From: a bacterium
GTDB taxonomy: Bacteria > Latescibacterota > Latescibacteria > Latescibacterales > Latescibacteraceae
DNA length: 64,000 bases
Direction: 5' to 3'
Assembly (NCBI GenBank): GCA_021372535.1
Contig: JAJFUH010000107.1
Span: 5,768 to 69,767 of the forward strand
The notes below the pieces were generated by a model. That model was given only the letters and a program-made list of their open reading frames with translations, was not told where the DNA came from and did not search any database. Within the stretch, counting starts at the first letter, position 1. Every line of letters starts with the position of its first letter. Both the position numbers and the translations under genes were made by a program. Shown here piece by piece: positions 6,420 to 42,639 of the stretch.

Positions 6420-6493
6420 TGCCCCGTCGTCCAATGGCAAGACAGCTGACTCTGGATCAGCCTATCGAGGTTCAAATCCTTGCGGGGCAGCCA
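6420..6493 (+). tRNA. tRNA-Gln (anticodon CUG)
   Basis: I folded it by hand. The acceptor stem is TGCCCCG/CGGGGCA, with the U1:A72 pair typical of bacterial tRNA-Gln. The anticodon stem is GCTGA/TCAGC with loop CTCTGGA, giving anticodon CUG. The T-arm is GAGGTTCAAATCCTT (GAGG/CCTT). G73 and CCA are encoded. Confidence 0.85.
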
Positions 6494-10873: not shown

Positions 10874-11965
10874 GTGAAAAAAAATCTGAAAATGGAATTT
10901 CTGCTCTTATTAGTTATTCTCCTCGTTTTTGCGTGTCTGTCCTTGCCGGTTTCCGGCGAAAATCATGATTATCAGAACGGTGTAAATCCTCAACGTAACG
11001 TACTTGTGGAAGCATTCACGGGTTCATGGTGTAGAAATTGCACAGTAGATATATTGACTGTTGAAAGGTATGTAAGAACGCATAGTAATATCTTTATGCT
11101 GGCGTATCATTTCAATGATCAGATGGCCACAGAAGATATCGAGGTGGTTATTTTCAGATTTACTGACGCATTTCCAGGTTTTGCTGTGGACAGGACTGTT
11201 TATAAAGACCTTAATTCCCTTGTTGCGAGAATGAACAACTGTGCTCAAAAAATTGAGGAGAGGTTATTGATTCCGCCCCGAATGACAATCGATCTGAGTT
11301 ATACGTATTCTCCTGAATCAAGACTGATCGATCTCGATGTCGCTCTTCATACCCTTGAGACAATCGATGCGAATTGTTATCTCCATATCGTTGTTGCTGA
11401 GGACAGCCTTAAATATCCGCAGCAAGGGGGAGCCGATCCATTCTACCACATGCATACCGTGCGCGACTTTATAACGGGAACAGACGGCGAACGGCTTAAC
11501 GATTCTGTACTCGCGGAGGGAACCGATATTCACAGGAATTATGCATACACACTGCAAAGCAAATTCAAACCTGAGAAAATCCGCATCGTTGTATTTGTCA
11601 GCGAAGGAATCGTGGGACCGGTGTGCCAGGCCGAGGAGCTGGTTCTCGTCGAGAACATCGTGACCAGGGTCGATGAATTGACCCCGGATACGTTCCGGGT
11701 GCACGCACCCTATCCTAATCCTTTCAATCCCGTAACAACGATCGAGTTTACTCTTCCCTCGGAATCGCATGTCAGCCTTGTAATGTATGATGTGCTGGGA
11801 AGAGTCGTCGATATTCCCGTTGATCGAACCTTGAGTACCGGGACACACCGGATCGTATGGGACGGCCGCGACAGAAAGGGTATCACGCTTGCTGATGGAC
11901 TGTATCTGTTCCGGCTTACTGCCGGAAATCATATAGCTCATGGGAAAGTGACACTTCTCAGATGA
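10874..11965 (+). CDS. Secreted T9SS cargo protein with an N-terminal CxxC thioredoxin-like (Omp28-related) domain and a C-terminal Por secretion sorting domain
   Basis: It has a signal peptide and the motif EAFTGSWCRNC. The C-terminus (YPNPFNPVTTIEF...GLYLFRLTAG...KVTLLR) matches the T9SS type-A CTD (TIGR04183-like). It is a paralog of 14323..16074 (shared YHMHxVRxxITGTxGERLN). Confidence 0.7.
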   Translation: MKKNLKMEFLLLLVILLVFACLSLPVSGENHDYQNGVNPQRNVLVEAFTGSWCRNCTVDILTVERYVRTHSNIFMLAYHFNDQMATEDIEVVIFRFTDAFPGFAVDRTVYKDLNSLVARMNNCAQKIEERLLIPPRMTIDLSYTYSPESRLIDLDVALHTLETIDANCYLHIVVAEDSLKYPQQGGADPFYHMHTVRDFITGTDGERLNDSVLAEGTDIHRNYAYTLQSKFKPEKIRIVVFVSEGIVGPVCQAEELVLVENIVTRVDELTPDTFRVHAPYPNPFNPVTTIEFTLPSESHVSLVMYDVLGRVVDIPVDRTLSTGTHRIVWDGRDRKGITLADGLYLFRLTAGNHIAHGKVTLLR

Positions 11966-12066
11966 TTGGTAAAAAAAACTTTTCGATTATGGTTTATGAA
12001 TACCATGAGATATTCCGGAATAAATCCATCAATCGGCATAGACAATTTCCACCAAAGGAGAGAGAG

Positions 12067-14238
12067 ATGAGAACTTCAAGGCTGATTTTTATGGCGATCA
12101 TGATTATAACTGTATCACAAGCTCTGGCGCAGGGAACGTGGACGCAATACCCGATAAGAATTGAAAAAATACAAGATATTGTGGTAAAAGACGGCGAATT
12201 ATGGTGTTCTTCGGAACGTAGAGTTTTTACGGTAAATCCATCGACAATGGAGTATAATGAGATTTTTAATGCTGGTTCTGATTATACAGGTGAAATTGAA
12301 AAGAGCACTACAGGTGATGTTTTAGTTGGCCTTGCCACAAAACAGTTCGTGTTTAAAAACGGTACATGGAAAAAAATCCAATATTCAGAACCCAATTCCG
12401 ATATCAGATATCCTGGAGCAGAATACTATGTACCATTTTGTTATGACCCTGACGGGATATGCTGGATGGCGGGCCATGGGATCGGGTTGATTCGTTTTGA
12501 CGGAGAGAAATATTCCAAAGTACCGGATGTTGAGTTTCTCCCGGATGATCGGGTAAAATCAATATTTGCCGGAAGTGATGGCAGAATATGGATCGGTACT
12601 AAAATAGGATTATATTGCTACGACAGAGAATCCGTGGAAAAACTGAGTTATAGCAAGGATAATCCTGAATATCGTGTTAAATGCATAGCGGAGGGATCGG
12701 ATGGTTCAATCTGGATAGGTACTCTGGATGATGGTATATTTAATTACAAAGACGGCTCGTGGAGCCACTATATTCCGGAGAGCAACGGAATTAAATATTT
12801 TGGCACCGGCTCATTACTCGTGGATGATACAGGGAACCTCTGGGCTTCATTAGTTCCTGTGAACTTTGAATGTAATAATCCTAATTCAACGCTTTTTAAG
12901 TTCGACGGTGAAACCTGGTATTCCTACCCCGATCCTGTTACCGCTAAATTAGTGGTGAAGTCATTAACACTCGCTCCTGACGGCACTATATGGGCAGGGA
13001 CGTACAATCAGATTTCTGATAAAGATGCCGGTATACTGCAATTTGACGGCAAAAAGTGGACAAATCACTTCTACAGTGAATTCATACCTCGTAACTTATA
13101 TATATATGGTCTCTTATACCACGATGGTTCATTACTACTGGCAACTGAAAACGAAGGATTATACCAGTATGATGGTACATCGTGGTCACACATCGTAAGC
13201 CCGTTTACCGATGCCAGGTCTGTCGCTGTTTCATCCGATAACAAAATATGGGTAGCAACAAAAGAAAAGCTTTACCGAAATGATGATTCATCATGGAAAC
13301 CTTTTACTTCAAACATGCTGACCGATAATAATATAATAAATCAAATCGCTGTCGGTTCCGATGGAATCGTATGGTGTATGACAAAGAACGGCCTTGTGCG
13401 TTTTGATGGTTCCGTCTGGAAATTGCAGGGTGAGAGCGACGGTATTCCCGATGGGGTCCTTTCAACTATTGCGGCTGATCCTTCCGGCCATATCTGGTTA
13501 GCCTGGTATACTTTTATATCCGATGAATTAATAAGTGGTATTACTGTTTATGATGGTGAAAAATGGACGGAAACGGGAATACCGGATAATTCGAAAGCGT
13601 CCACGGCTATCAATAAAATCATTTTCGGTCCCGAAGGTGAACCCTGGGCCGTCAGCTATAATGAACTTTTCAGATATGACGGTGCAAAATGGGTGAAAGA
13701 ACCGTATGAGTACCGGCAAATAATGGATATCACCTGTGATTCGGAAGGATATCTCTATATAAGAAATGAGATGGGAGTTGACTGTTATAATGGTGAAAGT
13801 AGAATGACCTATATCACTGGCATAGATGTCCCGAATTTGTCCTTTCTGGCAGCAGGTGATAAAGGTATGGTTTTTGGCGTGATGAGAGACGGTGTTTTCG
13901 CGCGGTTCGATCCTTACCGGATTCCAACGGTCGTCGATGAACCATATATAACAACTCCCGGTACATTCCCGATTGTTGGCAATTATCCGAATCCGTTCAA
14001 TATGTCGACAACCGTCTATTTCGAGCTGCCGTCGGAAACGCTGGTCGATCTTGCGATATTCTCAGTTACGGGACAGAAGATACGGACGCTGGTTTCCGAA
14101 CGGAAGAATCCCGGCAGGCATGTAATCGTATGGGACGGTCGCGATGATTTTGGCCGGAACGTATCTTCCGGCATCTATATAAGCCGTCTGCTCGGGGGAG
14201 AACTTACCGCATCATCACGCATGATGTTGTTAAAGTAG
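12067..14238 (+). CDS. Secreted Reg_prop beta-propeller repeat protein with a T9SS C-terminal sorting domain
   Basis: The ORF track gives 11962..14238. The likely start is the Met at 12067 (MRTSRLIFMAIMII..., signal peptide). It has many DG.IW.GT..GL repeats. The CTD is YPNPFNMSTTVYFELP...GIYISRL. Confidence 0.7.
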   Translation: MRTSRLIFMAIMIITVSQALAQGTWTQYPIRIEKIQDIVVKDGELWCSSERRVFTVNPSTMEYNEIFNAGSDYTGEIEKSTTGDVLVGLATKQFVFKNGTWKKIQYSEPNSDIRYPGAEYYVPFCYDPDGICWMAGHGIGLIRFDGEKYSKVPDVEFLPDDRVKSIFAGSDGRIWIGTKIGLYCYDRESVEKLSYSKDNPEYRVKCIAEGSDGSIWIGTLDDGIFNYKDGSWSHYIPESNGIKYFGTGSLLVDDTGNLWASLVPVNFECNNPNSTLFKFDGETWYSYPDPVTAKLVVKSLTLAPDGTIWAGTYNQISDKDAGILQFDGKKWTNHFYSEFIPRNLYIYGLLYHDGSLLLATENEGLYQYDGTSWSHIVSPFTDARSVAVSSDNKIWVATKEKLYRNDDSSWKPFTSNMLTDNNIINQIAVGSDGIVWCMTKNGLVRFDGSVWKLQGESDGIPDGVLSTIAADPSGHIWLAWYTFISDELISGITVYDGEKWTETGIPDNSKASTAINKIIFGPEGEPWAVSYNELFRYDGAKWVKEPYEYRQIMDITCDSEGYLYIRNEMGVDCYNGESRMTYITGIDVPNLSFLAAGDKGMVFGVMRDGVFARFDPYRIPTVVDEPYITTPGTFPIVGNYPNPFNMSTTVYFELPSETLVDLAIFSVTGQKIRTLVSERKNPGRHVIVWDGRDDFGRNVSSGIYISRLLGGELTASSRMMLLK

Positions 14239-14322
14239 ATTGATACGTATGAAATAACAACCGTTCGTCTTTGCAGGATGGACGGTTGTTGATTTTCAGC
14301 CGCGAAGTGACCGTAAAGAGAT

Positions 14323-16074
14323 ATGAACCTTATCGAAAAGGCATCTGTCGTGAAATCAGAGTCGTATACCATGTTTTTCATATATACGCTGGTGTTTTTA
14401 ATAGCTTTGTTTCATGCCGGGACAGCGGTTTCGGGCGATAACTACGAACCGAATGATTCGAGAGAAACGGCATACGAAATATCTTTTTCCGATGGTGTAT
14501 GGAAATCCGAAACGGCAACGATCGACACCCGGGAAGATGCCGACTGGTATTCGTTTTACGGGGAAAGCGATAGTTTCATTTCTATTTCATCCGATCCCAT
14601 TACAAAGTTCGACATTGCTTTTTCTCTCTATTACGGCGATTCAAGACTCACCTGCGCCGACAATTATTTCAGCGGTATGGCTGAAAAAATCGTAAAATAT
14701 CCGCTTGGTAAGGACGGGATATACTATATATGTGTCGGAACTCCCGAATCGACAAAAAAGAGAACCACTACCGATACGGATTCGTTCGGCTCGTATTCAC
14801 TCGAAATAACACTGTATAAAAGTCATACCATTTCCGGAAAAGTAACTGATTCACAAACGGGAAACGCGATATCGTCGGCACGGATCACTGTCGAACATGA
14901 TACCTCATATACAGCCGAGACAGATGTCGATGGAATGTTTGAAGTTATCCTGAAAGGAGCCCTCTCAGGCGAACCATTTGCCATACAGGTTCAAAAAACC
15001 GGCTATATTGCCGAGATTGCCAAAGGGATTGTATCAAATGCAAAGGAAACTGCCGTATCGATAGAACTCGCCCCACTTCCGGACAATTCCCGCAATGTCC
15101 TCCTTGAAGAATTCACCGCAACCTGGTGCACGTGGTGCCCGTATGCTACCGATATACTTGAAGAGATAATCCGCAGCCAGGGCAATGTTATCTCCATTGC
15201 GTACCACATTGAAGATGAAATGAGCACACCCGAAGGAGATCAGCTTGACGATATGTTAAGTCCGGCGCTTCCTCAGGCATTGATCGACAGGACACAATTC
15301 ACTGGAAGCAGTTCCATCCTGGTCAATCGTCAGGAATGGACAAAGCGATGCATCGAACGCTCACAGGTGCCGGCTCCTCTTTCGATCCATATTTCATGCG
15401 ATTATACAGGCTCGTCACGAAATGCTGATGTGACCGTTGACATGCTTTCCCTTTCCGATATGAAGGGAGCGTACAGGATCAATGTGGTTGTCTGCGAAGA
15501 CAGCCTTGATTATGAGCAGCATATCACCGGAAAAGACTATAAAACGATTTCTCCTTACTACCATATGCATGTCGTTCGCCGGATGATTACGGGAACATAT
15601 GGCGAACGGTTAAATACCGATCCGATTCAGGCGCAGACAAATATCCGGAAATACTATTCGTTCACGCTCGATGATTCGATTAATGAAAACTACGCTCGTC
15701 TTGTGGTATTCGTCAATGAAGATTTAAAAAACGGCCTGGGACCAGTGCAGCAGGCTGCACAGTGTACTATTATGGAAGACACGATAACGGAAGTCGAAAT
15801 CGACGAGCGAATCGCCTTTCAGATTCATCCGGCATTCCCGAATCCATTCAATACTACAACGATGATTCCATTCACTCTGACACAGGATAAACACATAGTG
15901 CTGACTGTTTATAACATTGTTGGAGAAAAAGTAACGACACTGACCGACCGTATCTGGCCACCGGGTAAGCATTCCATAATTTGGGATGCTCATGGATTTT
16001 CCAGCGGAATATATTTTTACCGGCTACAGGCGGGTGCGTCGATAGGCACGGGGAAAATGCTGCTGATCAAGTGA
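14323..16074 (+). CDS. Secreted multidomain T9SS cargo protein with PPC-like, carboxypeptidase-regulatory-like and CxxC thioredoxin-like (Omp28-related) domains plus the T9SS CTD
   Basis: It has the EPNDSRETAYEI PPC-type motif, a CxxC motif (EEFTATWCTWCPYA), and the CTD FPNPFNTTTMIPFTL...GIYFYRLQAG. The start may be the Met at 14371. Confidence 0.65.
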   Translation: MNLIEKASVVKSESYTMFFIYTLVFLIALFHAGTAVSGDNYEPNDSRETAYEISFSDGVWKSETATIDTREDADWYSFYGESDSFISISSDPITKFDIAFSLYYGDSRLTCADNYFSGMAEKIVKYPLGKDGIYYICVGTPESTKKRTTTDTDSFGSYSLEITLYKSHTISGKVTDSQTGNAISSARITVEHDTSYTAETDVDGMFEVILKGALSGEPFAIQVQKTGYIAEIAKGIVSNAKETAVSIELAPLPDNSRNVLLEEFTATWCTWCPYATDILEEIIRSQGNVISIAYHIEDEMSTPEGDQLDDMLSPALPQALIDRTQFTGSSSILVNRQEWTKRCIERSQVPAPLSIHISCDYTGSSRNADVTVDMLSLSDMKGAYRINVVVCEDSLDYEQHITGKDYKTISPYYHMHVVRRMITGTYGERLNTDPIQAQTNIRKYYSFTLDDSINENYARLVVFVNEDLKNGLGPVQQAAQCTIMEDTITEVEIDERIAFQIHPAFPNPFNTTTMIPFTLTQDKHIVLTVYNIVGEKVTTLTDRIWPPGKHSIIWDAHGFSSGIYFYRLQAGASIGTGKMLLIK

Positions 16075-16089
16075 AAGCATGGAGAAACA

Positions 16090-16611
16090 GTGATGAACAA
16101 GTATAAATCGTTTGCAACGGTATTCGTTATCTCGTTTTGTTTTTTTGTTCTGCCATATTCTCGATCGTATGCCCGGTCACCTGTCATACCTTTCTCATTC
16201 AAAACGTTGACAAACGAAATCATGCCTGTTGATTCCCTTCTTCAGAAAGGACCGGTACTGATAACATTCTGGGCAATGTGGTGCAAACCGTGCAAGGAAG
16301 AACTGCATGCGCTCAGCAAGGTACATTCCGAGTATCCTTTTGATTCCATTACGATAGTATCCGTGACAATCGATACTCCGCGAAGCATAGACCGTGTCAA
16401 ATCCTATGTTAAAACTCACAATTTCCCTTTTATATGCAGTACCGATCCCGGTAAAGAAATACTGAGAATCTTCAACGTTTCAGGGATTCCCTTTACGGTG
16501 ATTCTCAATAAAAAGCGGGAAGTGATCATGATGCATTCCGGATATGTCCCCGGTGATCTGGACGAATATGGAAAAAAAATCGAAAGCTGTCTGAAAACAG
16601 GAAAAGAATGA
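16090..16611 (+). CDS. TlpA/ResA-like periplasmic thiol:disulfide oxidoreductase (thioredoxin fold)
   Basis: It has a signal peptide and the WAMWCKPC active-site motif, with the size of TlpA-like thioredoxins. Its stop overlaps the start of the next gene. Confidence 0.75.
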   Translation: MMNKYKSFATVFVISFCFFVLPYSRSYARSPVIPFSFKTLTNEIMPVDSLLQKGPVLITFWAMWCKPCKEELHALSKVHSEYPFDSITIVSVTIDTPRSIDRVKSYVKTHNFPFICSTDPGKEILRIFNVSGIPFTVILNKKREVIMMHSGYVPGDLDEYGKKIESCLKTGKE

Positions 16612-18215
16612 ACAATATCGAGAAATACATAATAACGCTTCTTCTTTTTACAATCATACCGGTTCGTGCGTTCGCTTCACTGCCTTCCGTATCCGTCTCG
16701 AACTATTTCCGCTACGGTTTTGGCAACGAGATCATGAATTATAGAAATGAGGACAAGAAATATCTTGAAGAAAAAATCGCTGTTAATATTCACTGGAACC
16801 GTTTTCTGCTCGGCGGACGATATGATTATGACAATCCACCGGAATTTGGTTTTGAACATAGAAAACTGAGAAAATGGTATCTTGAATACAGGAAGGGACA
16901 ATGGAAACTCAGGGGAGGCACGTTCGCGGCCCTTTTTTCAAGGGGTCTGGTTTTAAACGCATACGAAGAGGAAATGATCGGTCATGACAGCGAAATTACC
17001 GGCGTAAACGCGCTGTATGAAAACGAACGCACAACGGTAAATATACTTGCCGGAAGCATGGATTATGAGATGATTCCGGATTTCAGGGATATCGTAACCT
17101 ATAACCTGCGCGGCGGTTCGATACGGAAAAAACTCATCGATTGGTACGCTGTCGGAGGCAGTTTCATACGGAGCGACCTGACCCAGAAAATCGGATATTA
17201 TAAGGTTAAGGACAAATTTTACGTAAATACAGCGGAGTTATGGTCGGAGATTGAAACAGACAATTTCAAGTTGTATGGCGGTATGGCATCAAACTCCCAT
17301 GAAAACAGAGGTCTTTTCACAGAGGGTGAAAACAGCGTATATGTTTCGCTCAACATGAATCTGCCCTCCACAAATGTCAACATTGAGTTCAAAAACTATA
17401 AATTCGGATTGACAACTCCTGAATATTGGGATTACACCCTGTATCGTCACCGGATGCTCGCATTTCAGAATCCTCCCACAGTAGTAAGAGAACACAGCTG
17501 GGTGCTGCTTTCACGACGCACACACAGTGTCAGTTTCAATGATGAGGTCGGTATGCAGTTCGACCTCTATCACAGACTATACCCTGAAACTACGCTCAAC
17601 CTTAACGGATCCGTTGCCGGAAAGCATTACCGGTATGATATGAATGAGTTCGGGGATTTTTCACGCAGAAAAAAGAATTTATCGTGGATACCGTCGCTCG
17701 ATCCCGAATATTCTCCGTTCTGGCAGGTATATGGTGAAGTTGAACACTACTTCCCGAATGGCAGTTCCATTACTGGTGGATTAGCCTATACGTTTGAGAG
17801 GATTTACAACTACTATATACCGGATGTCAGGGAGGAAAACAGGTCGTGTATCATACCCGTCCGGTTTATCTTTCAGCTGCCCGACTTGTATTCGTTACAG
17901 GGCACGGTAGAATATCAGAAATTTAAGGAAACCCTTCACGGCGACCAGTATTTTACCAACAGTTACTTTTCGTTTGGGATAGGCAAATCGCCTTACCTGA
18001 CAGCGGCAGTCGATGCTGAATATGTCACGAAAGGGTACGAGTATGATGATAAAACGCTGTGGTTGATTGGTACAATTCGTTATTGTTTCCGTTCGAGCCA
18101 GATTTTTGAAATAGGATATGGCGAGACACGAGGTGGACTTGTCTGCACGAACGGACGGTGCCGTTATGTTCCGGAATACAAGGGTTGGCGCTTTTCCGCC
18201 GAGATTCACTTCTGA
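16608..18215 (+). CDS. Putative outer-membrane beta-barrel protein of unknown function
   Basis: It has a signal peptide, alternating amphipathic segments rich in Y/G/F, and a C-terminal Phe (…AEIHF), as is typical of OMP barrels. It is the last gene of the T9SS-cargo/thioredoxin operon. Confidence 0.5.
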   Translation: MNNIEKYIITLLLFTIIPVRAFASLPSVSVSNYFRYGFGNEIMNYRNEDKKYLEEKIAVNIHWNRFLLGGRYDYDNPPEFGFEHRKLRKWYLEYRKGQWKLRGGTFAALFSRGLVLNAYEEEMIGHDSEITGVNALYENERTTVNILAGSMDYEMIPDFRDIVTYNLRGGSIRKKLIDWYAVGGSFIRSDLTQKIGYYKVKDKFYVNTAELWSEIETDNFKLYGGMASNSHENRGLFTEGENSVYVSLNMNLPSTNVNIEFKNYKFGLTTPEYWDYTLYRHRMLAFQNPPTVVREHSWVLLSRRTHSVSFNDEVGMQFDLYHRLYPETTLNLNGSVAGKHYRYDMNEFGDFSRRKKNLSWIPSLDPEYSPFWQVYGEVEHYFPNGSSITGGLAYTFERIYNYYIPDVREENRSCIIPVRFIFQLPDLYSLQGTVEYQKFKETLHGDQYFTNSYFSFGIGKSPYLTAAVDAEYVTKGYEYDDKTLWLIGTIRYCFRSSQIFEIGYGETRGGLVCTNGRCRYVPEYKGWRFSAEIHF

Positions 18216-18453: not shown

Positions 18454-18474
18454 TAATAAAACAAATATTATCTG

Positions 18475-18507
18475 CCGCTTGCAGGGTGTTTTGCAAGTGG
18501 TTTTTTT
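18475..18507 (+). terminator. Rho-independent terminator (a repeat-associated copy)
   Basis: The hairpin CCGCTTGCA...TGCAAGTGG is followed by TTTTTTT. It is homologous to the terminator at 6515..6551. Confidence 0.6.
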
Positions 18508-18945
18508 ATACTATTCCTTATTTCTTTTTATTAATTTCAGTAGTACTATCTGATTGTACATTAATTAGTAGAATCAAAAAGAATAAAAGCATACATCTGG
18601 CCTGAACTGTTTATACCTTTTTAGGTCCTTAAAGTCCGCTGCATTTGTATCTCTGTGTTCCCCGAAAAGATTCCCTTCATGAATCTGATAGAATGTCCTT
18701 CATAATCTCATGGTAGATATCTGTTTATCTTTTTTGCTGCCGCCGGAACATCCCATTTAAATTTTTTATTTTTTCCTCAATATTTTAAACGATAAATAAT
18801 AAAAATGCTTGACAATATATATTAAAGTGGTAGATTTGTTACCAATGTGGTGATGTAGCTACTTATATGGTATTCAACTAATAAAATTTGTAGAATTTCT
18901 GATATTAATAAATTAAATTCAACATTTATAAGGAGTTGAAAAGAT

Positions 18946-19620
18946 ATGAATTCATGTGTGCGAGTTTTTTTATTTCTGACCATCATGTGTAGTGTATTGA
19001 TTGTATCTGTCCATGCAGATGATCAACCTATTATAAATTTACAAGAAGGTAGAAATGAGATTTCCTTTTCAATCAAGAACGGATGGGATTATGATCTCAG
19101 TGGCCTTAAATTGGAGGTTAATGAGGAAAAGATTCCTTCATGGCTGAAGATAACAGTGTTGAAAAATGAAATAAATATTCCGCAGAAAATGAGTGGGAAT
19201 ATAACATTGAACTTCAACATCAGTCATGCTCCGGATGGTTCCATAGCTGAGATTCCTTTTATTATAGTCGATAGTAATAATAACCAATGGAGTTATTACC
19301 TTAAAATTGGTGTAAGTTCAAATGAAAATTCAGCGCCTCACCCCATAGATATTCTCTATGGTAACTTTCCCAATCCATTTAATCCATCTACGACTATCAC
19401 GTATTCGCTTGCAGAAACAAGATTGACGAAGCTTGTAATCTATAATTCACTCGGCCAAAAAGTTAAAACGTTACTTAATGAATCACAGGAAGCAGGAATA
19501 CATACCATTCAATGGGACGGACGGAATGAGTTCGGGCAGAAAGTTTCGAGCGGTATCTACCTCTATCAATTAATATCGGGTTCATTTATTGAAAGCAATC
19601 GCATGATTCTATTGGAATAA
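18946..19620 (+). CDS. Small secreted protein with a T9SS C-terminal sorting domain
   Basis: It has a signal peptide and the CTD FPNPFNPSTTITYSL...GIYLYQLISG...MILLE. Confidence 0.65.
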   Translation: MNSCVRVFLFLTIMCSVLIVSVHADDQPIINLQEGRNEISFSIKNGWDYDLSGLKLEVNEEKIPSWLKITVLKNEINIPQKMSGNITLNFNISHAPDGSIAEIPFIIVDSNNNQWSYYLKIGVSSNENSAPHPIDILYGNFPNPFNPSTTITYSLAETRLTKLVIYNSLGQKVKTLLNESQEAGIHTIQWDGRNEFGQKVSSGIYLYQLISGSFIESNRMILLE

Positions 19621-19636
19621 CAATAAGAGGGAGAAC

Positions 19637-21109
19637 ATGAAAAAGATTATAGGTTTTATGTGTCTGGCATGTATTTGTTTTATGCCCCGAGCCGGGTATG
19701 GTATAGATTTTTATAATACCGTATTTGTTGATGGCAAGGCTTCGATTAACGTGGATGGGGATTTATCCGACTGGGATGTTGTGAGTTTGCAACTGATACC
19801 GTTAGGCTATTATGAAAACTTGTCACAATCCCTTCCTCTGCCACAAAAAGATGATCTTTCGGCTTCTTTTAAATGCTTTGCAGATGAAGATTATGTATAT
19901 GTTGGAGTAATTGTTAATGATGATAAAGTATTTCTTGGTAATCACCCGTTTGGTGAAGGTTGGAATGATGACTCAGTAGAAATCTGTTTTGACAGTGATT
20001 TGAGCAATGTTTCAAAACCATATTTTGATAATAATGACGGACAGGTTCGGGTTATTGGCAATTATGATGGAAGTTCATACCTGGAAGGCGTTGTACCATA
20101 TCTTTACATTTCACAGCTGCCATACTATTGGGAAGCCCGAGGTATTCGAGGGGGCTTTAAACTCAACGACAGGGGCTATTCAGTTGAAGTGGCAATTCCA
20201 CTTGAAGTTCTGGAGTTGAACAAGATTACGCCACAACGTGGTCTCGGGGTAAATATCAGAGTGCTTGAAGATGATCATGAAGAAAACAATGATGAGAATG
20301 AGGGTGTTCTTTCATGGTCTTTTGATCCTGACAAAACGAGCTGGTGGAAGACAGATCGCTACAACAGAGTTGTTTTTGTTAAGGCTGTGACTTTGCCCGG
20401 TGTTGTACAGGAAAAATCACAAGCTTCAGTAAAAGGTATTAAAAATAATGCGTGGGAAGTCGAGTTAGGACTCAATGCCCCCGATAAGATAGGTTTTAAC
20501 AACATTCTGATATCCGCCTTTTCGGACATCGCAAACAGCAACTGGAAAATGGCTGAAGAAAAACTCAAACCCTTGCAAGACAGGCTATGGGCACAACTTA
20601 TAGTGGGTGTAGTTCAGTTTCATGATGAAAGGTATGCGGAAGCTATTACTCAGTTGAATGATTTTGCAAAGAAGTGTCCTGATGATTATGCAGCGACATG
20701 GGCATATGATTTTTCATACAATTTTGCGAGAGAATTGATGTTGTCGAAAGAACTGTTTGAACGTTTTCAAAAAAGGGAAAATGGCAAAGGAGCCCTCATA
20801 CTCCATGAATATTTAAAACAAAATCCGGGCGATCCAAAATCGTGTGAGCTTCTTTCATTTGCATTGAGCAAAACAAAGGGAAGTGATGTTGACTTCATAG
20901 CGATTCAAAAGGTCATTAGCGAGCCGGTCAACCAGGAAATCACTAAACAAGCTCAGATAGCTCTTGCCCGTTACTATTTTATAAATAACAAATTTGACAA
21001 TGCTCAGGCTATTTGTACAAATTTACTGAGCTCTGAGCTCAATTCGACGGAAGCGCTGAATACAAAAATGATTCTCCTTTCGATCGAGAGAAAATTAAGC
21101 CAAAAATAG
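19637..21109 (+). CDS. Secreted protein with an N-terminal CBM9/DOMON-like sugar-binding domain and a C-terminal helical (TPR-like) region
   Basis: It has a signal peptide. The DGDLSDWD...DDSVEICFD motifs resemble family-9 carbohydrate-binding modules. Confidence 0.45.
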   Translation: MKKIIGFMCLACICFMPRAGYGIDFYNTVFVDGKASINVDGDLSDWDVVSLQLIPLGYYENLSQSLPLPQKDDLSASFKCFADEDYVYVGVIVNDDKVFLGNHPFGEGWNDDSVEICFDSDLSNVSKPYFDNNDGQVRVIGNYDGSSYLEGVVPYLYISQLPYYWEARGIRGGFKLNDRGYSVEVAIPLEVLELNKITPQRGLGVNIRVLEDDHEENNDENEGVLSWSFDPDKTSWWKTDRYNRVVFVKAVTLPGVVQEKSQASVKGIKNNAWEVELGLNAPDKIGFNNILISAFSDIANSNWKMAEEKLKPLQDRLWAQLIVGVVQFHDERYAEAITQLNDFAKKCPDDYAATWAYDFSYNFARELMLSKELFERFQKRENGKGALILHEYLKQNPGDPKSCELLSFALSKTKGSDVDFIAIQKVISEPVNQEITKQAQIALARYYFINNKFDNAQAICTNLLSSELNSTEALNTKMILLSIERKLSQK

Positions 21110-21151
21110 CTGGAATAAATTTAATTTTCGAAAACATAAAGGATTTCACCT

Positions 21152-22561
21152 TTGCAGGTATTTAATTTTATAAGAATATTATGGTTTATTATTGTCCTGA
21201 TGGCAGTTGACGCGTATGCTGCTGATAAAGTAGTTGATCCGCTCTGCGGGCCGAAAAGTCTCCTGAAAATCTGTGAAATGAAAAATATTACGAGCGATCT
21301 CAAGAAAATCTGTGATTTATCAAGCTACAATGAAAATTCAGGAACAACAATGCTCGGACTTTATAACGCTGCATGTAAATTAGGACTTCCTGTCGTACCG
21401 GTACGCATTAATATTGAAGAGCTTTCGAATATTAATGAGCCATCAATTGCTTTTGTGGACGGGAACCATTTTCTTGTTCTTCATGCACTCAAAGGGAACA
21501 AGGTATTAATTCAGAATCCTCCGGCCCCGGCATATATGCAATCAAAAGAAGTTTTTAAATCTCGATGGAATGGAGAAGTTCTCGTTTTTTCGGATAAACT
21601 GAAGAAGCAGATGAAATCCCAGTTGAAATCATTGTCAGTGCCTCTCAAAGAACCATGTGTAAAATTTTCCCAAACAAGCCATAATTTTAGTACGGTGAAC
21701 GAAGGTGAGAAACTTTCGAATATTTTTTCTTTTACAAATATCGGTTCTGAACCTTTGGAAGTGTATGCCCGTTCAACGTGTACATGTGCTGTTGCTGTTA
21801 CATCGAAAAATAGAATTCTTTCGGGCGACAAGGGGGAAATTAAAGTAGAGTTTGACACAAACGGTAAAAAAGGACAGGTAAAGCAAACAGTATTTGTAAA
21901 AACCAACGATCCTAATAACAAGTATGTTACTTTAACAATTTCAGCTGATGTTAAGCAAAGTATAAAAGTTGTGCCTGACAGAATTCTGGTTGAGGAAATG
22001 ACAGTTGGCGAGGTTATCGAACGTGAAATCCAGATAATAGATTCAGGTAATGGTACCTTAAAGGTAATGAGTGTAGATACACCCGAAGGTGTCAGGGTAA
22101 AGAATCTTCCTGAAGAAAATATGAGTACAAAAACAATTCCGATGCAGTTGATAATTGAAAGTGGTAAAGTTCTTGGTGATTTTGAGAAAAAAATCATAAT
22201 TCATACAAATGATTCAAAACGGTCTATAATTACCGTTCCCGTTACAGGTAAAGTAATCGGGAATGTTAAAGCATTTCCTGCTGCTTTTTATTTTGGAGAG
22301 ATAAAACCGGATACAACAATTATTAAAGAGATAACATTATCATCAGATAAGCATGCTATTAAACAACTTTCAGCAAAATCGAAATCTTCGTTTGTGAAAA
22401 TTGAAGTTGTATCAATTGATGGGGGGCATAAGTATCAGTTAAAAGCCGTTTTAACCTCCCCGCACAAAGAGTCTTTGATTCGAGATACAATAGCTGTTTA
22501 TCTGACAGATAAAGACGATCCGGTTTTGGAAATTCCTTTATATGCCTTGGTTACTAAATAA
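21152..22561 (+). CDS. Secreted peptidase C39-like domain protein followed by DUF1573-like beta-sandwich repeats
   Basis: It starts with TTG and has a signal peptide. It carries the PLCGPKSL...NAACKLG Cys motif and a downstream GNHFLVLH His motif, as in C39 bacteriocin-processing peptidases. There is no ABC transporter domain. The C-terminal two-thirds resemble DUF1573 repeats. Confidence 0.55.
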   Translation: MQVFNFIRILWFIIVLMAVDAYAADKVVDPLCGPKSLLKICEMKNITSDLKKICDLSSYNENSGTTMLGLYNAACKLGLPVVPVRINIEELSNINEPSIAFVDGNHFLVLHALKGNKVLIQNPPAPAYMQSKEVFKSRWNGEVLVFSDKLKKQMKSQLKSLSVPLKEPCVKFSQTSHNFSTVNEGEKLSNIFSFTNIGSEPLEVYARSTCTCAVAVTSKNRILSGDKGEIKVEFDTNGKKGQVKQTVFVKTNDPNNKYVTLTISADVKQSIKVVPDRILVEEMTVGEVIEREIQIIDSGNGTLKVMSVDTPEGVRVKNLPEENMSTKTIPMQLIIESGKVLGDFEKKIIIHTNDSKRSIITVPVTGKVIGNVKAFPAAFYFGEIKPDTTIIKEITLSSDKHAIKQLSAKSKSSFVKIEVVSIDGGHKYQLKAVLTSPHKESLIRDTIAVYLTDKDDPVLEIPLYALVTK

Positions 22562-22578
22562 TTTGGAATGATATATTC

Positions 22579-22740
22579 ATGGTACAGATGAATAATGATT
22601 TTTTCCCGCTAAACTTCGAAGATCGATCATTTGAAACGCAAAACCTTAGAAATAGAGTTATGGAAATTGTTAAAGATCTTTCTGAAGAAGATTTATACTA
22701 TCTTATGGAAATACTTAAACTTACAATAAGAACTGAATAA
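22579..22740 (+). CDS. Possible small acidic protein (53 aa) lying between the C39-like gene and blaI-2
   Basis: It is an ATG-initiated ORF, MVQMNNDFFPLNFEDRSFETQNLRNRVMEIVKDLSEEDLYYLMEILKLTIRTE. It falls below the ORF-track threshold and I see no homology. Confidence 0.2.
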   Translation: MVQMNNDFFPLNFEDRSFETQNLRNRVMEIVKDLSEEDLYYLMEILKLTIRTE

Positions 22741-22834
22741 GTTTGAAAGTTGGATTGTAAGCGGATGCATAATAGTGTTAATTTAATATGGTATTTTGTA
22801 TAATATAACTTAAAACATAAATATAGGAGCAATC

Positions 22835-23215
22835 ATGAAAGTAGGTGTCGGTTTACTTGGCGAACTTGAATGGGCAGTTATGAAAACGTGTTGGGATAAA
22901 GGCAAAACAACCGCGCGAATAATCTTCGAGGAAATAAAAAAAACAAGAAATATACAATACCAAACGATAAAGACAACCCTCGACAGATTAGTCCAAAAAG
23001 GGTATCTCGTACGAGAGAAGTTTGGTCCTATTTGGCTTTATTCTTCCACGGTTACTGAAACGACATTGACATCAAAAGCAATTGAAAGCTTTGCTCAGAC
23101 TGTTTTTGGTAATGCTATTGCGCCGGTTTTTATTCACCTTTTAAAGAAAAAAAAGTATACCCATGAAATCGAAGAACTGAAAAAGATTATCAATGAAATT
23201 GAAGAGGAGGACTGA
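22835..23215 (+). CDS. BlaI/MecI/CopY-family transcriptional repressor (second copy)
   Basis: The 126-aa winged-helix protein is followed immediately by an M56 peptidase gene. Confidence 0.7.
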   Translation: MKVGVGLLGELEWAVMKTCWDKGKTTARIIFEEIKKTRNIQYQTIKTTLDRLVQKGYLVREKFGPIWLYSSTVTETTLTSKAIESFAQTVFGNAIAPVFIHLLKKKKYTHEIEELKKIINEIEEED

Positions 23216-23266
23216 GCCATAGAATCAATCATTTCGACAATAGTTTCGGCCAGCCGGATTGTATGG

Positions 23267-24601
23267 ATGTTGAGTTGGCAGGTTTCTGTCCTTATAATGG
23301 CAATCTGGATATTTTCTGTGGTTTTCAGAAAAATTCAGCCAATTTTTCACTATTGGCTATGGAGTATTGTCGTTTTGCGGTTAATTCTTCCATTCAATAT
23401 ATCAATGCCAACTGGTGTCAGCCAATATTTACGCTCCCCCATGGAGATGAAAATCACCGAAATCACCAGAAACAATCGTTTTTCAGAAGTCATAAATAAA
23501 ACTACCATGCCTTTTAAATCATCAATGGTACAAAAAATCGAAAAGCTGGACTTTGATAAAAATAAACCTGTCTCATTGAATGTAAATGACATTGTTGTTT
23601 TCACATGGCTTGGGATAATGCTGCTTCTTGGCTCAGGGACAATTATCTGGACATTGCATGTTCGTAAACTTGTAAAAAGTTTTCCGGTTGTCAGCCGACG
23701 TGATATACGGGAACTCTTTCTGAGAAAATGCAGGGAATTGGGAATAAAGCAGAACTGTGAAATCTATACCATGCACAGCACCATGCCAATGGGACCAACA
23801 GTGACCGGTGTCTTTTATCCTAAAATTCTTCTGCCATATAGAGTCATTGAGGACTGGTCGATTAAAGAGATTGAACCTCTAGTGATTCACGAGCTTGTTC
23901 ATATACAACGTCATGATCTGATCATGAACTGGATTCAAATTGCGGCCCAGATTGTGTATTTCTTTCATCCGCTGGTATGGTTTGCGAACTGGAAGATCCG
24001 TGAAACACGTGAAGAGATATGCGATGACCTCACAATAAGAAGTATTGAAAATAAGCGTAAACGATATTCACAAAGTATTCTCAATGTTATAGAGGGGATA
24101 GTGTATGAACCGATCTGGGGAGTTGTTGATATTGGCTTTTCAGAACGGAAGAGTTCTCTGGCGAAAAGAATTATCAGAATCGCGAATAAACGGTATAAAT
24201 TTTATAAACCTCTCGATATCATTACCACCGGAATATTGATAATCGTTTCATTGATCAGCATATCGTTGTCATGTGATTATTCGCCTAGGAAAATTATTGG
24301 TAATGAAGTCTATAATGAAGAACAAAGCACAGTTATAGATATTGCTTTAGAGAATTCGAATACTATCGCAATAAAAATTGATTCCAGTGGTGAGTATGAA
24401 GTTGATGGGATCAGAGTGGCTCCTGAAAATCTGGAGGGATTTTTAAAGAAACTCTCGGAGGAAAGCGGCAAAAAAAATATCACAATATTTCCTGATCCGA
24501 AATCTTCTCAAGTACTTTTTATCAATGCAGTAAATGTTTCACAAAATATCGTTGGAATGAAAAAAATAAAAATTAAAAAAACTGATTTTCAAAAGGAGTG
24601 A
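23267..24601 (+). CDS. BlaR1-like M56 peptidase signal transducer with a C-terminal ExbD/TolR-like periplasmic domain
   Basis: It has TM helices and the HExxH motif VIHELVHIQRHD. The C-terminal ~100 aa (VIDIALENSNTIAIKIDSSGEYEVDG...ITIFPDPKSSQVLFINAVNV) resemble ExbD/TolR. Confidence 0.65.
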   Translation: MLSWQVSVLIMAIWIFSVVFRKIQPIFHYWLWSIVVLRLILPFNISMPTGVSQYLRSPMEMKITEITRNNRFSEVINKTTMPFKSSMVQKIEKLDFDKNKPVSLNVNDIVVFTWLGIMLLLGSGTIIWTLHVRKLVKSFPVVSRRDIRELFLRKCRELGIKQNCEIYTMHSTMPMGPTVTGVFYPKILLPYRVIEDWSIKEIEPLVIHELVHIQRHDLIMNWIQIAAQIVYFFHPLVWFANWKIRETREEICDDLTIRSIENKRKRYSQSILNVIEGIVYEPIWGVVDIGFSERKSSLAKRIIRIANKRYKFYKPLDIITTGILIIVSLISISLSCDYSPRKIIGNEVYNEEQSTVIDIALENSNTIAIKIDSSGEYEVDGIRVAPENLEGFLKKLSEESGKKNITIFPDPKSSQVLFINAVNVSQNIVGMKKIKIKKTDFQKE

Positions 24602-24604
24602 ACT

Positions 24605-24958
24605 ATGAGGGTATCAAAACTAATACTTTTGCCTTTAATTTTTCTTTTCATGACATTATTATCCGAAAATAACATTGTTTATTTGTCGAAGGGAAATGCA
24701 AACTATCAAAAAGAGTTTTCATATATTGAAAACACTTTGAATACAGAGAATATACAAGTGATCTCCATGGAAGATATGTCCATGACTATTGGAGGTTGCA
24801 GTGGTGGTACATGCAGCAATAATTCACATTCATGTCCATCAGGATGCACACATTATGATGCCGATAAATGTAGCGGAATCATTGGAAGCTGCGTAAATGA
24901 TTGTTGGTCAATTCTATGCAGCTGCCCAGGTTACTATACAATGGATAATGGATGTTAA
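24605..24958 (+). CDS. Small secreted Cys-rich protein (117 aa) with an internal double-glycine-leader-like motif
   Basis: The ATG lies 4 nt after the blaR1-2 stop. It has an N-terminal signal/TM segment. The motif ISMEDMSMTIGG matches the LSxxELxxIxGG pattern. It is followed by a 53-aa core with 11 Cys and abundant Ser/Thr. Confidence 0.5.
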   Translation: MRVSKLILLPLIFLFMTLLSENNIVYLSKGNANYQKEFSYIENTLNTENIQVISMEDMSMTIGGCSGGTCSNNSHSCPSGCTHYDADKCSGIIGSCVNDCWSILCSCPGYYTMDNGC

Positions 24959-24993
24959 TAATTATATTAATAAATTACAGGAGGTTATATTCT

Positions 24994-25959
24994 ATGACAA
25001 TATATATAAGACGAGTATTTTTACCTTTAATATTTTTGTTATGCGGTTTTAATCCTGTTTTCGCTCAAGAGTCTTTGGAATTGAAGGCAATAATCGATGG
25101 AGCTGATATTGGCGATATGATGATTACGAGTGGAAACGGGAATCTTGTATATGAATATACCCGTGTGGATTCAATGAGCTCAAGAGCCCTTGAACTTGAC
25201 CAGGAGCATATTGCTTCGGCAGATACGGATACTAAAACAATTATTCGCAATTACGAAAAATTAAACATTACATTTTCTTTCAGCGGTTCAAAAGTGCGAT
25301 GCAATGAAAGCTCATATAATCGTCTGCCCAACGGAAAATGGTACCCTCAGGACTGGCAGTGGGCATATAATGGCGAGAAACTTGACCTTCTCCGTCTTGA
25401 CGGATTAGATGAGAATGGGCTTATAGTTCCCAGAGGTTCTGTAAGAACCGAATATGTATCACGACTTAACAGGTTTGACCCAAGATACAACGGTATGAAA
25501 ATAATGGGTACATCGGTAGGTACTTTCCTCAGGGGATCAATAGGTGACAAGAATGTTGAAAATATAAAACTGATGCCAGAAGAAACCATTGACAGTATCC
25601 CTTGTAAAGTTGTTCGTGGCTATGTCCCAAACACAACAGAAACAATTACAGTCTGGCTTGCTCCCGGTATCATGAATCACCCCAAACGTATCGAATATCT
25701 TTCCGGTGATGAATTAACTGTTGTCAACAATAATTTCAAAGAGTTCAAGGGAGGCATCTGGTTCCCGGAGTCTGTTGCGAAAGAATTGTTCTATCGTGGT
25801 CCTGCCGGCAAATGGATTCTCTATGTAAAAGAAAAAATCACGATTCAGAATGATTTTGATATCAATATTGATTTGCCCGCCTCTCTTTTTGAAATACAAT
25901 TCCCGGCCGGTCTCTGGGTATACGATTACCGTCTTGGTGAAAAGATTGAAAGTAAATAA
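24994..25959 (+). CDS. Secreted protein of unknown function, possibly with a LolA-like/DUF4292-like fold
   Basis: There is an AGGAGG RBS at 24978–24983, 10 nt before the ATG, and a signal peptide. The ORF track extends it to 24952. The fold is suggested only weakly. Confidence 0.4.
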   Translation: MTIYIRRVFLPLIFLLCGFNPVFAQESLELKAIIDGADIGDMMITSGNGNLVYEYTRVDSMSSRALELDQEHIASADTDTKTIIRNYEKLNITFSFSGSKVRCNESSYNRLPNGKWYPQDWQWAYNGEKLDLLRLDGLDENGLIVPRGSVRTEYVSRLNRFDPRYNGMKIMGTSVGTFLRGSIGDKNVENIKLMPEETIDSIPCKVVRGYVPNTTETITVWLAPGIMNHPKRIEYLSGDELTVVNNNFKEFKGGIWFPESVAKELFYRGPAGKWILYVKEKITIQNDFDINIDLPASLFEIQFPAGLWVYDYRLGEKIESK

Positions 25960-25969
25960 ATTCTTAAAT

Positions 25970-26716
25970 ATGGGTAATATTATGTGTAATCTGATGATTG
26001 AAAAAAAAATTGATGAGAAAAATTATCTTATTAATAAGATAAATTCAAATAATATTCTGTCACAAGGTATTGTCCATGACCTGAATAATGTTTTAACAAT
26101 GCTGCAGGGTAATCTTACCCTGGCAAAAATGGAGATAAACAGGAGTGATAAAGCTATTGAAATACTGAACAATGCTCAGCAAGTATGTGAACGATCAAAA
26201 GGTCTTATACGTCAATTGTCGGTTTTATATGATGATAACTCGAACAAAAAAGTGAAATTATCTGTTTCTGAAATAATCAGATATACTGCAAAATTTTGTG
26301 TTATGAGCACCAAAATATATTGTGAGTTTTCATTACCCAAAAACTTATGGTTCATTAATGCCAATGAAGGACAAATTAATCAGGTTTTTACAAATTTAAT
26401 TCTCAATTCAATCCAGGCGATGCCGAAAAGCGGAGTTATTAAGATTAAAGCTAAAAATACTATTGTTGATAATAATAACGATATACCGCTTAACGGTAAC
26501 TTTGTGAAAGTTACCGTTAAAGATAATGGGTATGGTATATCTGAAGATATTCTGCCAAAAATCTTTGATCCGTACTATACCACAAAGAAAAATGGTAAAG
26601 GATTGGGGCTGTCGATAGTTAATTTCATTATTCAAAAACATAATGGCTATATCAGCGTAGACTCGAAAGTTGGTGAAGGTACGTCGTTTGATGTATATTT
26701 ACCGGCAATTATTTAA
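25970..26716 (+). CDS. Cytoplasmic orphan histidine kinase (HisKA + HATPase_c only)
   Basis: It has an H-box (IVHDLNNVLTMLQGN) and N/G1/G2 boxes (NLILNSIQAM, VKDNGYGI, GKGLGLSIV). The start is placed at the internal Met at 25970, because the longer ORF overlaps the upstream gene. Confidence 0.65.
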   Translation: MGNIMCNLMIEKKIDEKNYLINKINSNNILSQGIVHDLNNVLTMLQGNLTLAKMEINRSDKAIEILNNAQQVCERSKGLIRQLSVLYDDNSNKKVKLSVSEIIRYTAKFCVMSTKIYCEFSLPKNLWFINANEGQINQVFTNLILNSIQAMPKSGVIKIKAKNTIVDNNNDIPLNGNFVKVTVKDNGYGISEDILPKIFDPYYTTKKNGKGLGLSIVNFIIQKHNGYISVDSKVGEGTSFDVYLPAII

Positions 26717-42433: not shown

Positions 42434-42639
42434 TTCCCCCGATAGTCTCTTGTAAAAATAGTATGGCTGAAACCCGATAAAGCATGTAAATAGACCGGCT
42501 GAACGTCTGTGGTTAATCAGGGAGAATCACCGTTTTTCTCAATCGTTAAAACCCGTTTTATTTTCACCGTGATTTGTCATATCTTACATTTCACTTATAA
42601 AGACAACCATTCAGTGTGAGAACATACTTGGAGGTAATT

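Follow-up and report, generated by a model that had tools for sequence, protein, structure and literature searches.

Double-glycine (GG) leaders usually function as cytoplasmic export tags that are removed in the course of export by C39 peptidase domains borne on ATP-binding cassette (ABC) transporters. In these peptidase-containing ABC transporter (PCAT) systems, such as those of ComA, LagD, PCAT1 and CvaB, the leader forms the N-terminus of the precursor (15-30 amino acids, aa), commonly follows the consensus L-S-x-x-E-L/M-x-x-I/V-x-G-G, and is conserved while being joined to variable cores. The nearest precedent for a C39 peptidase working in a different setting is FapD, a Sec-exported, stand-alone protease that acts in the periplasm on Sec-exported partners and is needed there catalytically, its substrate being unclear (PMC5557850). 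The BlaR1/BlaI and MecR1/MecI systems pair a BlaI-family repressor with an adjacent M56 zinc protease that bears a HEXXH motif and an extracytoplasmic C-terminal domain. Elements comparable to each of these occur together in an operon of a bacterium of the Latescibacteraceae (assembly GCA_021372535.1, contig JAJFUH010000107.1), which spans approximately 18.8-26.7 kilobases (kb) of the 64,000-nucleotide (nt) stretch analyzed here (the window; positions 5,768 to 69,767 of the forward strand of the contig) and includes a three-gene cassette coding for a Cys-rich precursor, a LolA-fold protein and a C39-DUF1573 peptidase.

The original prediction for this region had listed six genes, namely a secreted C39-like peptidase, a BlaI-like repressor, an M56 sensor, a Cys-rich peptide, a LolA-like protein and an orphan histidine kinase, all of which were found on the + strand where it had placed them. 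The precursor, LolA-fold and C39-DUF1573 genes constitute a conserved and hitherto undescribed gene cassette; in the full-text literature we found no paper that joins C39 to DUF1573, nor one that links it to a LolA-like partner together with leader processing in the periplasm. The cassette is distinguished from the GG-leader/C39 kind by its topology, by its LolA-fold partner (which is sometimes fused to the peptidase) and, in the window, by its BlaI/BlaR1-type regulation. Whereas the PCAT leader is N-terminal, that of the cassette is internal, being placed behind a Sec-type signal and a spacer of 17-59 aa, and the peptidase is a stand-alone protein with its own signal peptide and DUF1573/Ig-like domains. 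As an exported, non-ABC peptidase would cut outside the cytoplasm, cleavage would be uncoupled from export. A PCAT-exported bacteriocin was rejected, as the peptidase lacks ABC domains and the operon lacks an ABC/PCAT transporter. The cassette also differs from the Fap system in that the Fap proteins lack a canonical GG leader whereas its own presumed substrate has a textbook one, in the absence of Fap genes and of a FapF-type channel, and in its accessory domains (DUF1573 and LolA-like). We consider it probable, judging from sequence and gene context, that the precursor is exported by Sec and then cleaved at the GG by the exported C39 peptidase in the periplasm, with the participation of the LolA-fold partner and, in this genome, under BlaI/M56 regulation.

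The Cys-rich precursor and the C39-DUF1573 peptidase

The precursor gene (24605-24958, + strand) codes for a 117-aa protein comprising a Sec-type signal (residues 1-20; nt 24605-24664), a spacer (residues 21-52), the GG-leader motif ISMEDMSMTIGG (residues 53-64; nt 24761-24796), which fits LSxxELxxIxGG, and a 53-aa core (residues 65-117; nt 24797-24955). The signal, the motif and the length of the core are as had been predicted, though the core has 10 Cys and not the 11 that had been counted. The ATG at 24605 lies 3 nt past the stop codon of the preceding M56 gene and has an AAGGAG Shine-Dalgarno sequence approximately 6 nt ahead of it, while the in-frame TTG proposed as an alternative start, which is codon 45 and lies at 24737-24739 rather than at 24749, lacks one. 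Given this Shine-Dalgarno sequence, the NCBI gene call, which gives the same 117-aa form, and the conserved N-terminus of the homologs, we conclude that the long, signal-bearing form of the precursor is the real one.

A word-index search with the window peptide recovered only itself, and its relatives came from a full HMMER scan: phmmer, run without the use of synteny over 1.84 billion representative proteins, recovered 21 homologs, 10 of them with E-values up to 1e-10. All complete sequences among these possess the signal, 20 of the 21 have GG at the predicted site and one has GS, and they share the core framework C-x-G-G-x-C-x3-H-x-C-x3-C-x7-C-x-G-x2-G-x-C-x8-C-x-C-x8-G-C. Thus, both the GG and the Cys pattern, on which the original prediction had staked the case for this small open reading frame (ORF), are features of a family. 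All 34 full-length members of the family (in what follows, L labels denote related loci and P labels database proteins) display 1-3 Lys/Arg residues, an uncharged run of 12-22 residues, a spacer, the GG motif and a Cys-rich core, with 17-59 residues (median 33.5) between the hydrophobic run and the GG site. The family consensus of the motif is L-S-x-x-E/D-M-x-x-x-x-G-G, in which, across 22-24 homologs, G63 never varies and both M58 and G64 are conserved to at least 90%; the motif is the best-conserved segment of an otherwise variable precursor. The residue after the GG is Cys in 23 of the 34 members, and the position -3 to that residue is often K, R, N or Y.

Neither NCBIfam nor Pfam has a model covering the precursor or the LolA-like protein, and NCBI labels both as hypothetical. 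The leader is similar in style to those of the TIGR04149 precursors of ribosomally synthesized and post-translationally modified peptides (RiPPs) from Bacteroidota, and the TIGR04149 model matches 5 of 22 peptides (best E 3.8e-4), all below its cut-off; the window peptide reaches 14.4 bits (E 0.027), the cut-off being 25. Matches to the lichenicidin A2 leader model and to bacteriocin_sig, obtained for 2 and 1 of the 22, respectively, likewise stay below the cut-offs. In an AlphaFold model of the peptide the leader motif forms a short helix, and the core, which is modeled with moderate confidence, is entirely beta. The same precursor layout was recovered with quite different and longer cores on Poribacteria chromosomes (L009-L016, L030, L045), and in other metagenomic lineages (L042/L043, L046/L047, L048). 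Classical short precursors that begin with the leader were found only beside C39-domain matches lacking the C39-DUF1573 architecture (L086, L105/L106, L033). Two of these loci, L105 (2518-3010) and L106 (2348-3010), contain 3-4 tandem identical 50-aa genes for classical precursors with N-terminal GG leaders (..EEELEAVLGG..CHVNSW..FTCC) near a C39-domain match, a conventional lanthipeptide-like array which provides a contrast to the cassette.

The peptidase (21152-22561, + strand; 469 aa, with a TTG start and AAGGA upstream) begins with a hydrophobic signal, and in searches with Pfam profiles its C39-like domain passes the threshold, as the original prediction required (Peptidase_C39, PF03412, 62.0 bits against a cut-off of 22), as does its DUF1573 region (78.8 bits against 26.1). 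PF03412 occurs together with PF07610 in 22 of 28 database homologs retrieved, the named sources of such C39-DUF1573 proteins being Latescibacterota and Omnitrophica. Among solved structures the closest are the ComA peptidase domain (E 2e-7) and PCAT1, to whose catalytic Cys, His and Asp the motifs LCGP, NHF and IQ[N/D]P of the cassette peptidases align; in the window protein the corresponding residues are C32, H106 and N122. In an alignment of 20 homologs the Cys and the His are present in all 20, the Asn/Asp in 19, and every one of the 20 has a hydrophobic N-terminus. The window peptidase has no ABC domains and scores only 20-36 bits with the NCBIfam PCAT models, for which the cut-offs are 700-850. 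Matches to the NCBIfam C39_FapD model (E 0.0018, 17.6 bits against a cut-off of 330) and to FilB (E 0.078) are weak, and the operon contains no ABC/PCAT transporter, no radical S-adenosylmethionine (SAM) gene and no fap genes.

The conserved cassette and its LolA-fold partner

Genomic contexts, gathered by exact look-up together with scans of GTDB genomes and JGI metagenomes, revealed synteny of the trio in Latescibacterota, Poribacteria and other uncultured or metagenomic lineages; exact-sequence look-up with the M56 protein and the peptide of the window itself found no contig on record. The Latescibacterota-type loci fall into two gene orders, both of which begin with a gene for a protein with a type IX secretion system (T9SS) tail, followed by one for a CBM9/TPR protein. 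In type A (L001, L003/L040, L008/L044, L039, L041) these are succeeded by the small peptide, a ~320-aa protein and C39-DUF1573, whereas in type B (the window, L004, L005, L006/L035, L034, L038) the succession is C39-DUF1573, in some loci a 53-aa ORF, BlaI, M56, the small peptide and the ~320-aa protein. A further JGI contig, available as a gene list without DNA, also displays the type B order. The closest relative of the window locus, L114, has M56, the peptide, the ~320-aa protein and a histidine kinase in that order. In every locus with enough flanking sequence the small gene codes for a hydrophobic N-terminus, a variable spacer, the GG motif and a Cys-rich core. A strict filter (an ORF length of 70-200 aa, an N-terminus that is hydrophobic and free of charges, at least 18 residues ahead of the motif and 5 or more Cys behind it) retrieved such a gene in 17 of the 19 distinct loci that have the full architecture and sufficient flanking sequence, as against 1 of 1305 control ORFs (636 kb), indicating that the arrangement is not due to chance. 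Candidates are visible by eye in the two loci that it missed (L007 and L013), and its single control match (L048) adjoins another C39-DUF1573 gene.

The third member of the cassette (24994-25959, + strand; 321 aa) is a secreted protein with the LolA/LolB open beta-barrel fold, and an obligate companion of the peptide and the peptidase. The likeness is visible only at the level of the fold, as Pfam and NCBIfam gave no sequence-model match (PF17131, PF03548 and others); the predicted LolA-like identity is therefore upheld structurally and lacks a counterpart at the sequence-model level. In comparison to the LolA/LolB/RseB superfamily, this protein (p320) is longer and has extra N-terminal helices, and its genetic ties, which in some lineages extend to fusion, are with a C39 peptidase and not with lipoprotein sorting or sigma-E control. 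Every Latescibacterota-type locus has a ~320-aa homolog along with the peptide and the peptidase, and with a profile of the family the gene was likewise recognized 5' of the peptidase in L009, L010, L016, L030 and L042. In further Poribacteria loci the same profile matches the N-terminal 300 residues of 760-830-aa peptidases, significantly so in L011, L012 and L015; in L014 and L045 the peptide gene is immediately followed by a C39-DUF1573 ORF of that length, which gave no significant match to the profile. In the single chain of L011 Pfam recovers LolA_like at 24.5 bits (cut-off 30), C39 at 63 bits and DUF1573 at 74 bits, and two database proteins (P0023 and P0024; BLASTP E 3e-5 and 6e-5) are also LolA-like/C39-DUF1573 fusions. 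Since the fusion begins with a signal peptide and the LolA-like domain, the C39 domain is placed outside the cytoplasm. L046 (3640-5762) has, in the place of the one LolA-like gene of other loci, two tandem genes of ~350 aa between those of the precursor and the peptidase; neither gave a score with the p320 profile.

Two unrelated lineages have TPR proteins encoded directly upstream of the precursor gene (L042, 907-2592; L046, 1962-3077), recalling the TPR half of the CBM9/TPR protein of the window; for the L046 protein, matches of the BamD/YfiO-like and Slam-TPR-like kinds were obtained. The Poribacteria cassettes are flanked by a gene for a formylglycine-generating enzyme (FGE)-sulfatase domain protein (SUMF1-like, 184 bits) and one for an STT3-like oligosaccharyltransferase-type membrane protein (L011, 4801-5583, and L015, 9360-11780; also L012, L014, L030 and L045). 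These neighbors hint at periplasmic modification of the peptide in Poribacteria.

Taken together, these observations suggest the following mechanism. The precursor would be exported by Sec through its N-terminal signal, and in the periplasm the exported C39 domain would recognize the internal L-S-x-x-E/D-M-x-x-x-x-G-G motif in the manner in which C39 domains of the ComA/PCAT type recognize their leaders. Cleavage after the GG (Gly64) would free a core of ~53 aa beginning with CSGGTCSNN, which is probably disulfide-bonded. The LolA-fold protein would work with the peptidase; as the two form one polypeptide in several Poribacteria, it most likely binds or holds either the whole precursor or the hydrophobic or leader portion of it. 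The peptidase would be transcribed from the first promoter of the operon, while BlaI and the M56 protein with its ExbD-like periplasmic domain, which in the gene order of the window stand directly upstream of the peptide and LolA-like genes, probably make production of the substrate inducible by an envelope or external cue. The combination of conserved leaders with lineage-variable cores leads us to favor a secreted effector, antagonistic or signaling, over a housekeeping protein. The predicted periplasmic processing of a secreted Cys-rich peptide is supported by the conservation among the homologs of the signal, the GG motif and, within the subfamily, the Cys spacing, by synteny across phyla and by a C39 domain that retains its catalytic residues.

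Several points weigh against this reading. Only 5 of the 20 peptidase homologs have the oxyanion Gln that normally stands six residues ahead of the catalytic Cys, a departure from the PCAT enzymes, and in the window it is replaced by K; moreover, positions 1-12 of the C39 profile are unmatched in the window protein, where the signal peptide occupies that stretch. A few precursors have GA, GQ, GK or GS in place of GG, and fold comparison of the peptide core matched no known fold. The export status of the precursors was judged by composition rules, without a dedicated signal predictor, and in some members the hydrophobic runs of 12-22 residues could be uncleaved anchors. Scans for inverted repeats and TACA/TGTA-type sites upstream of BlaI and of the first gene revealed no motif common to different loci or to the two positions, so that it is gene order that speaks for control of the peptide genes by BlaI. 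The role proposed for the LolA-like protein likewise draws on synteny and fusion, and we infer GG cleavage, as well as all the other steps, from domains, residues, motif, synteny and fusion.

More tentatively, and with somewhat less than even confidence, the cassettes might define a class of two-signal secreted peptides with disulfide-rich, variable cores that is widespread in Latescibacterota, Poribacteria and other uncultured phyla, one branch of which has come under a BlaR1/BlaI-type system that does not sense beta-lactams. If the proposed mechanism is true, C39 leader recognition would have been re-used as a periplasmic maturation step, and the precursors would be the first obvious substrate for the poorly understood periplasmic C39 peptidases. 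They would also supply a searchable signature, namely a signal, spacer, LSxxEMxxxxGG and Cys-rich core beside C39-DUF1573 and LolA-fold genes, with which disulfide-rich peptides of uncultured phyla, including sponge symbionts, could be mined. The insertion of BlaI and the M56 protein with its ExbD-like domain would furthermore offer a concrete case for what non-beta-lactam BlaR1 homologs sense.

Companion genes, the BlaI/M56 switch and competing explanations

Two further secreted proteins precede the peptidase in the operon. The first gene (18946-19620, + strand), which is also the first of the module in Latescibacterota-type loci, codes for a 224-aa protein with a FlgD_ig/Por_Secre_tail C-terminal sorting domain (the T9SS tail), and the second (19637-21109, + strand), a conserved companion, for a 490-aa protein with CBM9_1 and TPR. 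One alternative is that the peptide serves as the subunit, or as the primer, of some structure at the surface or outside the cell, akin to the Fap amyloid or Fil pilus, with the C39 protein serving its secretion or assembly and the T9SS-tailed and CBM9/TPR proteins taking part too. Such a structure would be in keeping with their conservation in Latescibacterota-type loci, with the weak FapD and FilB matches of the peptidase, with the BamD/Slam-like TPR matches of the companion in L046, and with FapD itself being a periplasmic C39 protein needed for fiber secretion (PMC5557850). However, the cores are short, Cys-rich and lineage-variable, and lack amyloid-type repeats, the conserved core of the cassette includes no gene for an outer-membrane channel, and the Poribacteria-type loci have neither the T9SS-tail gene nor the CBM9 gene; we hence regard both the structural role of the peptide and the part ascribed to the two companions as unlikely.

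The regulatory genes lie downstream of the peptidase. The BlaI/MecI/CopY-family winged-helix repressor (22835-23215, + strand; 126 aa) is recovered by Pfam with Penicillinase_R (PF03965) at 91.6 bits (cut-off 22.6), which bears out its predicted identity, and 51 nt after it begins the gene for a BlaR1-type M56 membrane metalloprotease (23267-24601, + strand) with the sequence HELVH (Peptidase_M56, 155 bits against a cut-off of 31). Unlike BlaR1, in which the sensor is a class-D beta-lactamase-like penicillin-binding domain, the latter has a ~100-aa ExbD/TolR-like C-terminal domain (residues ~345-444), which presumably lies in the periplasm. The blaR1_generic model scores 119.8 bits, confined to the M56 part, against a cut-off of 400, and Pfam and NCBIfam gave no penicillin-binding, transpeptidase or beta-lactamase match in the protein. 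ExbD (PF02472) scores 19.8 bits, or 22.2-23 bits with the C-terminal domain alone, against a cut-off of 25.4; its match recurs in all 4 of the orthologous M56 C-terminal domains (best E 3.7e-5) and is sub-threshold in the window, and a profile of the domain compared to ExbD chains of the PDB gave E-values of 0.46-0.89, with no significant recovery. Thus, of the original description of this sensor, the M56 assignment and the lack of a beta-lactam sensor hold, while the ExbD likeness stays below the threshold. M56 proteins with other C-terminal modules, e.g. TonB, are known from Bacteroides and are uncharacterized (PMC10350073). In all 4 of the orthologs considered (the window, 24260-24280, residues ~332-338; L004, L006 and L034) the last transmembrane helix is immediately followed by [SA]-C-D (as in SLSCDYSP, AIACDSP and MISCDN), resembling a lipobox at an internal position.

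Also unlike the BlaR1 systems, the window locus has no beta-lactamase or PBP2a gene, the genes downstream being those of the peptide and the LolA-like protein; the position of the BlaI/M56 pair suggests that it controls these two. No gene order other than type B has the pair, which invariably lies between the peptidase and peptide genes; about half of the Latescibacterota-type loci (L001, L003, L008, L039, L041) and all Poribacteria-type loci are without it. Being restricted to one gene order, the pair is an accessory, an add-on regulator of one branch rather than a core component. A TTGACA promoter together with a palindrome occurs upstream of BlaI in L005, L006 and L038, the palindromes differing among the three. 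Separately, L005 has at ~7600-7670 an inverted repeat with 14-nt arms (TTAACATATGTTGT..ACAACACATGTTAA) behind a TTGACA promoter, 3' of the peptidase gene and before an extra ORF that is lacking in the window.

This arrangement could also be taken to mean autoinduction, a form of the peptide-sensing BlaR1/BlaI signaling that the original prediction had raised, whereby the mature peptide is the ligand of the ExbD-like domain of the M56 protein and its binding leads to BlaI cleavage and to more peptide. Autoinduction by GG-leader peptides is familiar from class II bacteriocin systems, the sensor is no penicillin-binding domain, and BlaI-M56 stands directly upstream of the peptide gene (with a gap of 3 nt in the window), an order that is repeated in five other loci. 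Against this, the cassette exists without BlaI/M56 in the type A and Poribacteria-type loci listed above, implying that the primary role of the peptide cannot be signaling to the M56 protein. The window furthermore has a second BlaI/M56 pair with a different sensor (7040-10311), suggesting that such pairs are generic regulators in this lineage. An autoinducing loop therefore seems rather unlikely. The second pair consists of a BlaI-like gene (7040-7435; 131 aa) overlapping the start of a gene for a 959-aa M56 protein (7432-10311), the long extracytoplasmic part of which has weak CBM9_1 and DUF2092 (LolA-superfamily) matches. Its CBM9-type similarity to the CBM9/TPR protein is weak (E 2e-4), and a comparison of the LolA-like family profile with its C-terminus found no relationship.

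It is also conceivable that the GG is not a cleavage site at all, the small gene coding for a plain Sec-secreted Cys-rich protein and the C39-DUF1573 protein acting on another substrate or as a non-catalytic adaptor. In favor of this, the oxyanion Gln is not conserved, and non-catalytic C39-like domains are carried by HlyB-type transporters (mentioned in PMC5557850). Nevertheless, the near-invariance of the catalytic Cys, His and Asn/Asp (19-20 of 20 homologs), the match to the full 12-residue GG-leader consensus in precisely the most conserved part of the precursor, and the near-universal co-occurrence of the peptide and peptidase genes render this distinctly improbable.

Even less credible is a reading in which translation begins at the internal TTG and gives a cytoplasmic precursor of the classical kind, with the canonical 20-aa GG leader that the original prediction had proposed, or a radical-SAM-modified RiPP of the TIGR04149 type. 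The weak TIGR04149 match and the TTG at 24737 being in frame are in its favor, but the Shine-Dalgarno sequence and the NCBI call mark the upstream ATG, every one of the 34 full-length members keeps the hydrophobic N-terminus ahead of the leader, neither an ABC/PCAT transporter nor a radical-SAM maturase is encoded in the operon, and signal-less short precursors occur only beside C39 domains of the other architecture; we take it to be very improbable. Finally, an ordinary lipoprotein, in which Lgt and Lsp would process I-G-G-C as a lipobox and the LolA-like protein would carry the product, is scarcely tenable in spite of the frequent Cys after the GG and the LolA-fold partner, because 17-59 residues, charged ones among them, separate the Cys from the hydrophobic region, 11 of the 34 members lack it, and position -3 is variable and often K, R, N or Y, which together exclude an ordinary lipobox and, with it, the signal-peptidase-processed lipoprotein that the original prediction had named among its refuting outcomes.

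The last gene of the operon (25970-26716, + strand) codes for a sensor-less cytoplasmic histidine kinase (DHp and HATPase_c), in which HATPase_c scores 86.8 bits and HisKA 17.2 bits (cut-off 26.9), with an HDLNN H-box being present. No transmembrane segment and no adjacent response-regulator gene were found, in agreement with its having been called an orphan cytoplasmic kinase. The kinase of L114 occupies the same position and is 50% identical to it.

Genomic setting of the operon

The operon comprises nine same-strand ORFs (18946-26716) separated by gaps of 3-94 nt, with terminator- and promoter-like sites upstream. A terminator-like hairpin (18474-18501, + strand), with a 12-base-pair stem followed by a T-run, closes the preceding DUF6029 operon, and the best promoter-like site of the region (18809-18836, + strand; TTGACA, 16 nt, TAGATT, with TG) precedes the first gene. 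A TTGACA element is present at the equivalent spot 5' of the first gene in 7 related loci. The operon lies within a block (6420-27000) in which the GC content is 32-45% over the stretch of 6.5-27 kb, as against 50-59% in the flanks, and a tRNA-Gln gene (6420-6493) is situated exactly at the left edge of this block. Direct repeats of at least 10 nt linking the tRNA-Gln region to the right edge were sought and not found. The related loci mostly have a GC content of 35-41%, with L004, L011, L014 and L042 at 47-56%. The block has the look of either a genomic island or a chimera of the metagenome assembly, and horizontal acquisition is likely.

Upstream in the same block is a run of genes for T9SS-tailed proteins (10874-18215), including a 363-aa Omp28-domain protein, a 758-aa Reg_prop beta-propeller and a 583-aa PPC/CarboxypepD_reg/Omp28 protein. 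A TlpA-like thioredoxin gene (16090-16611) comes after them and overlaps the DUF6029 gene (16608-18215) by 4 nt; a periplasmic thiol-disulfide oxidoreductase near the operon of a Cys-rich peptide may be of relevance to the latter. The 959-aa M56 protein and a second 959-aa ORF of the window (42616-45495) displayed no relationship on comparison. Within the operon, a conserved ORF of 53 aa (22579-22740, + strand; ..EEDLYYL.EILK..), for which no family match was obtained, lies between the peptidase gene and BlaI. ORFs of this type, which lack a signal peptide, occupy that position in 4 of the 6 type B loci, the other copies being in L004 (3752-4018), L005 (~8280-8445) and L034 (3717-3842, with an in-frame stop).

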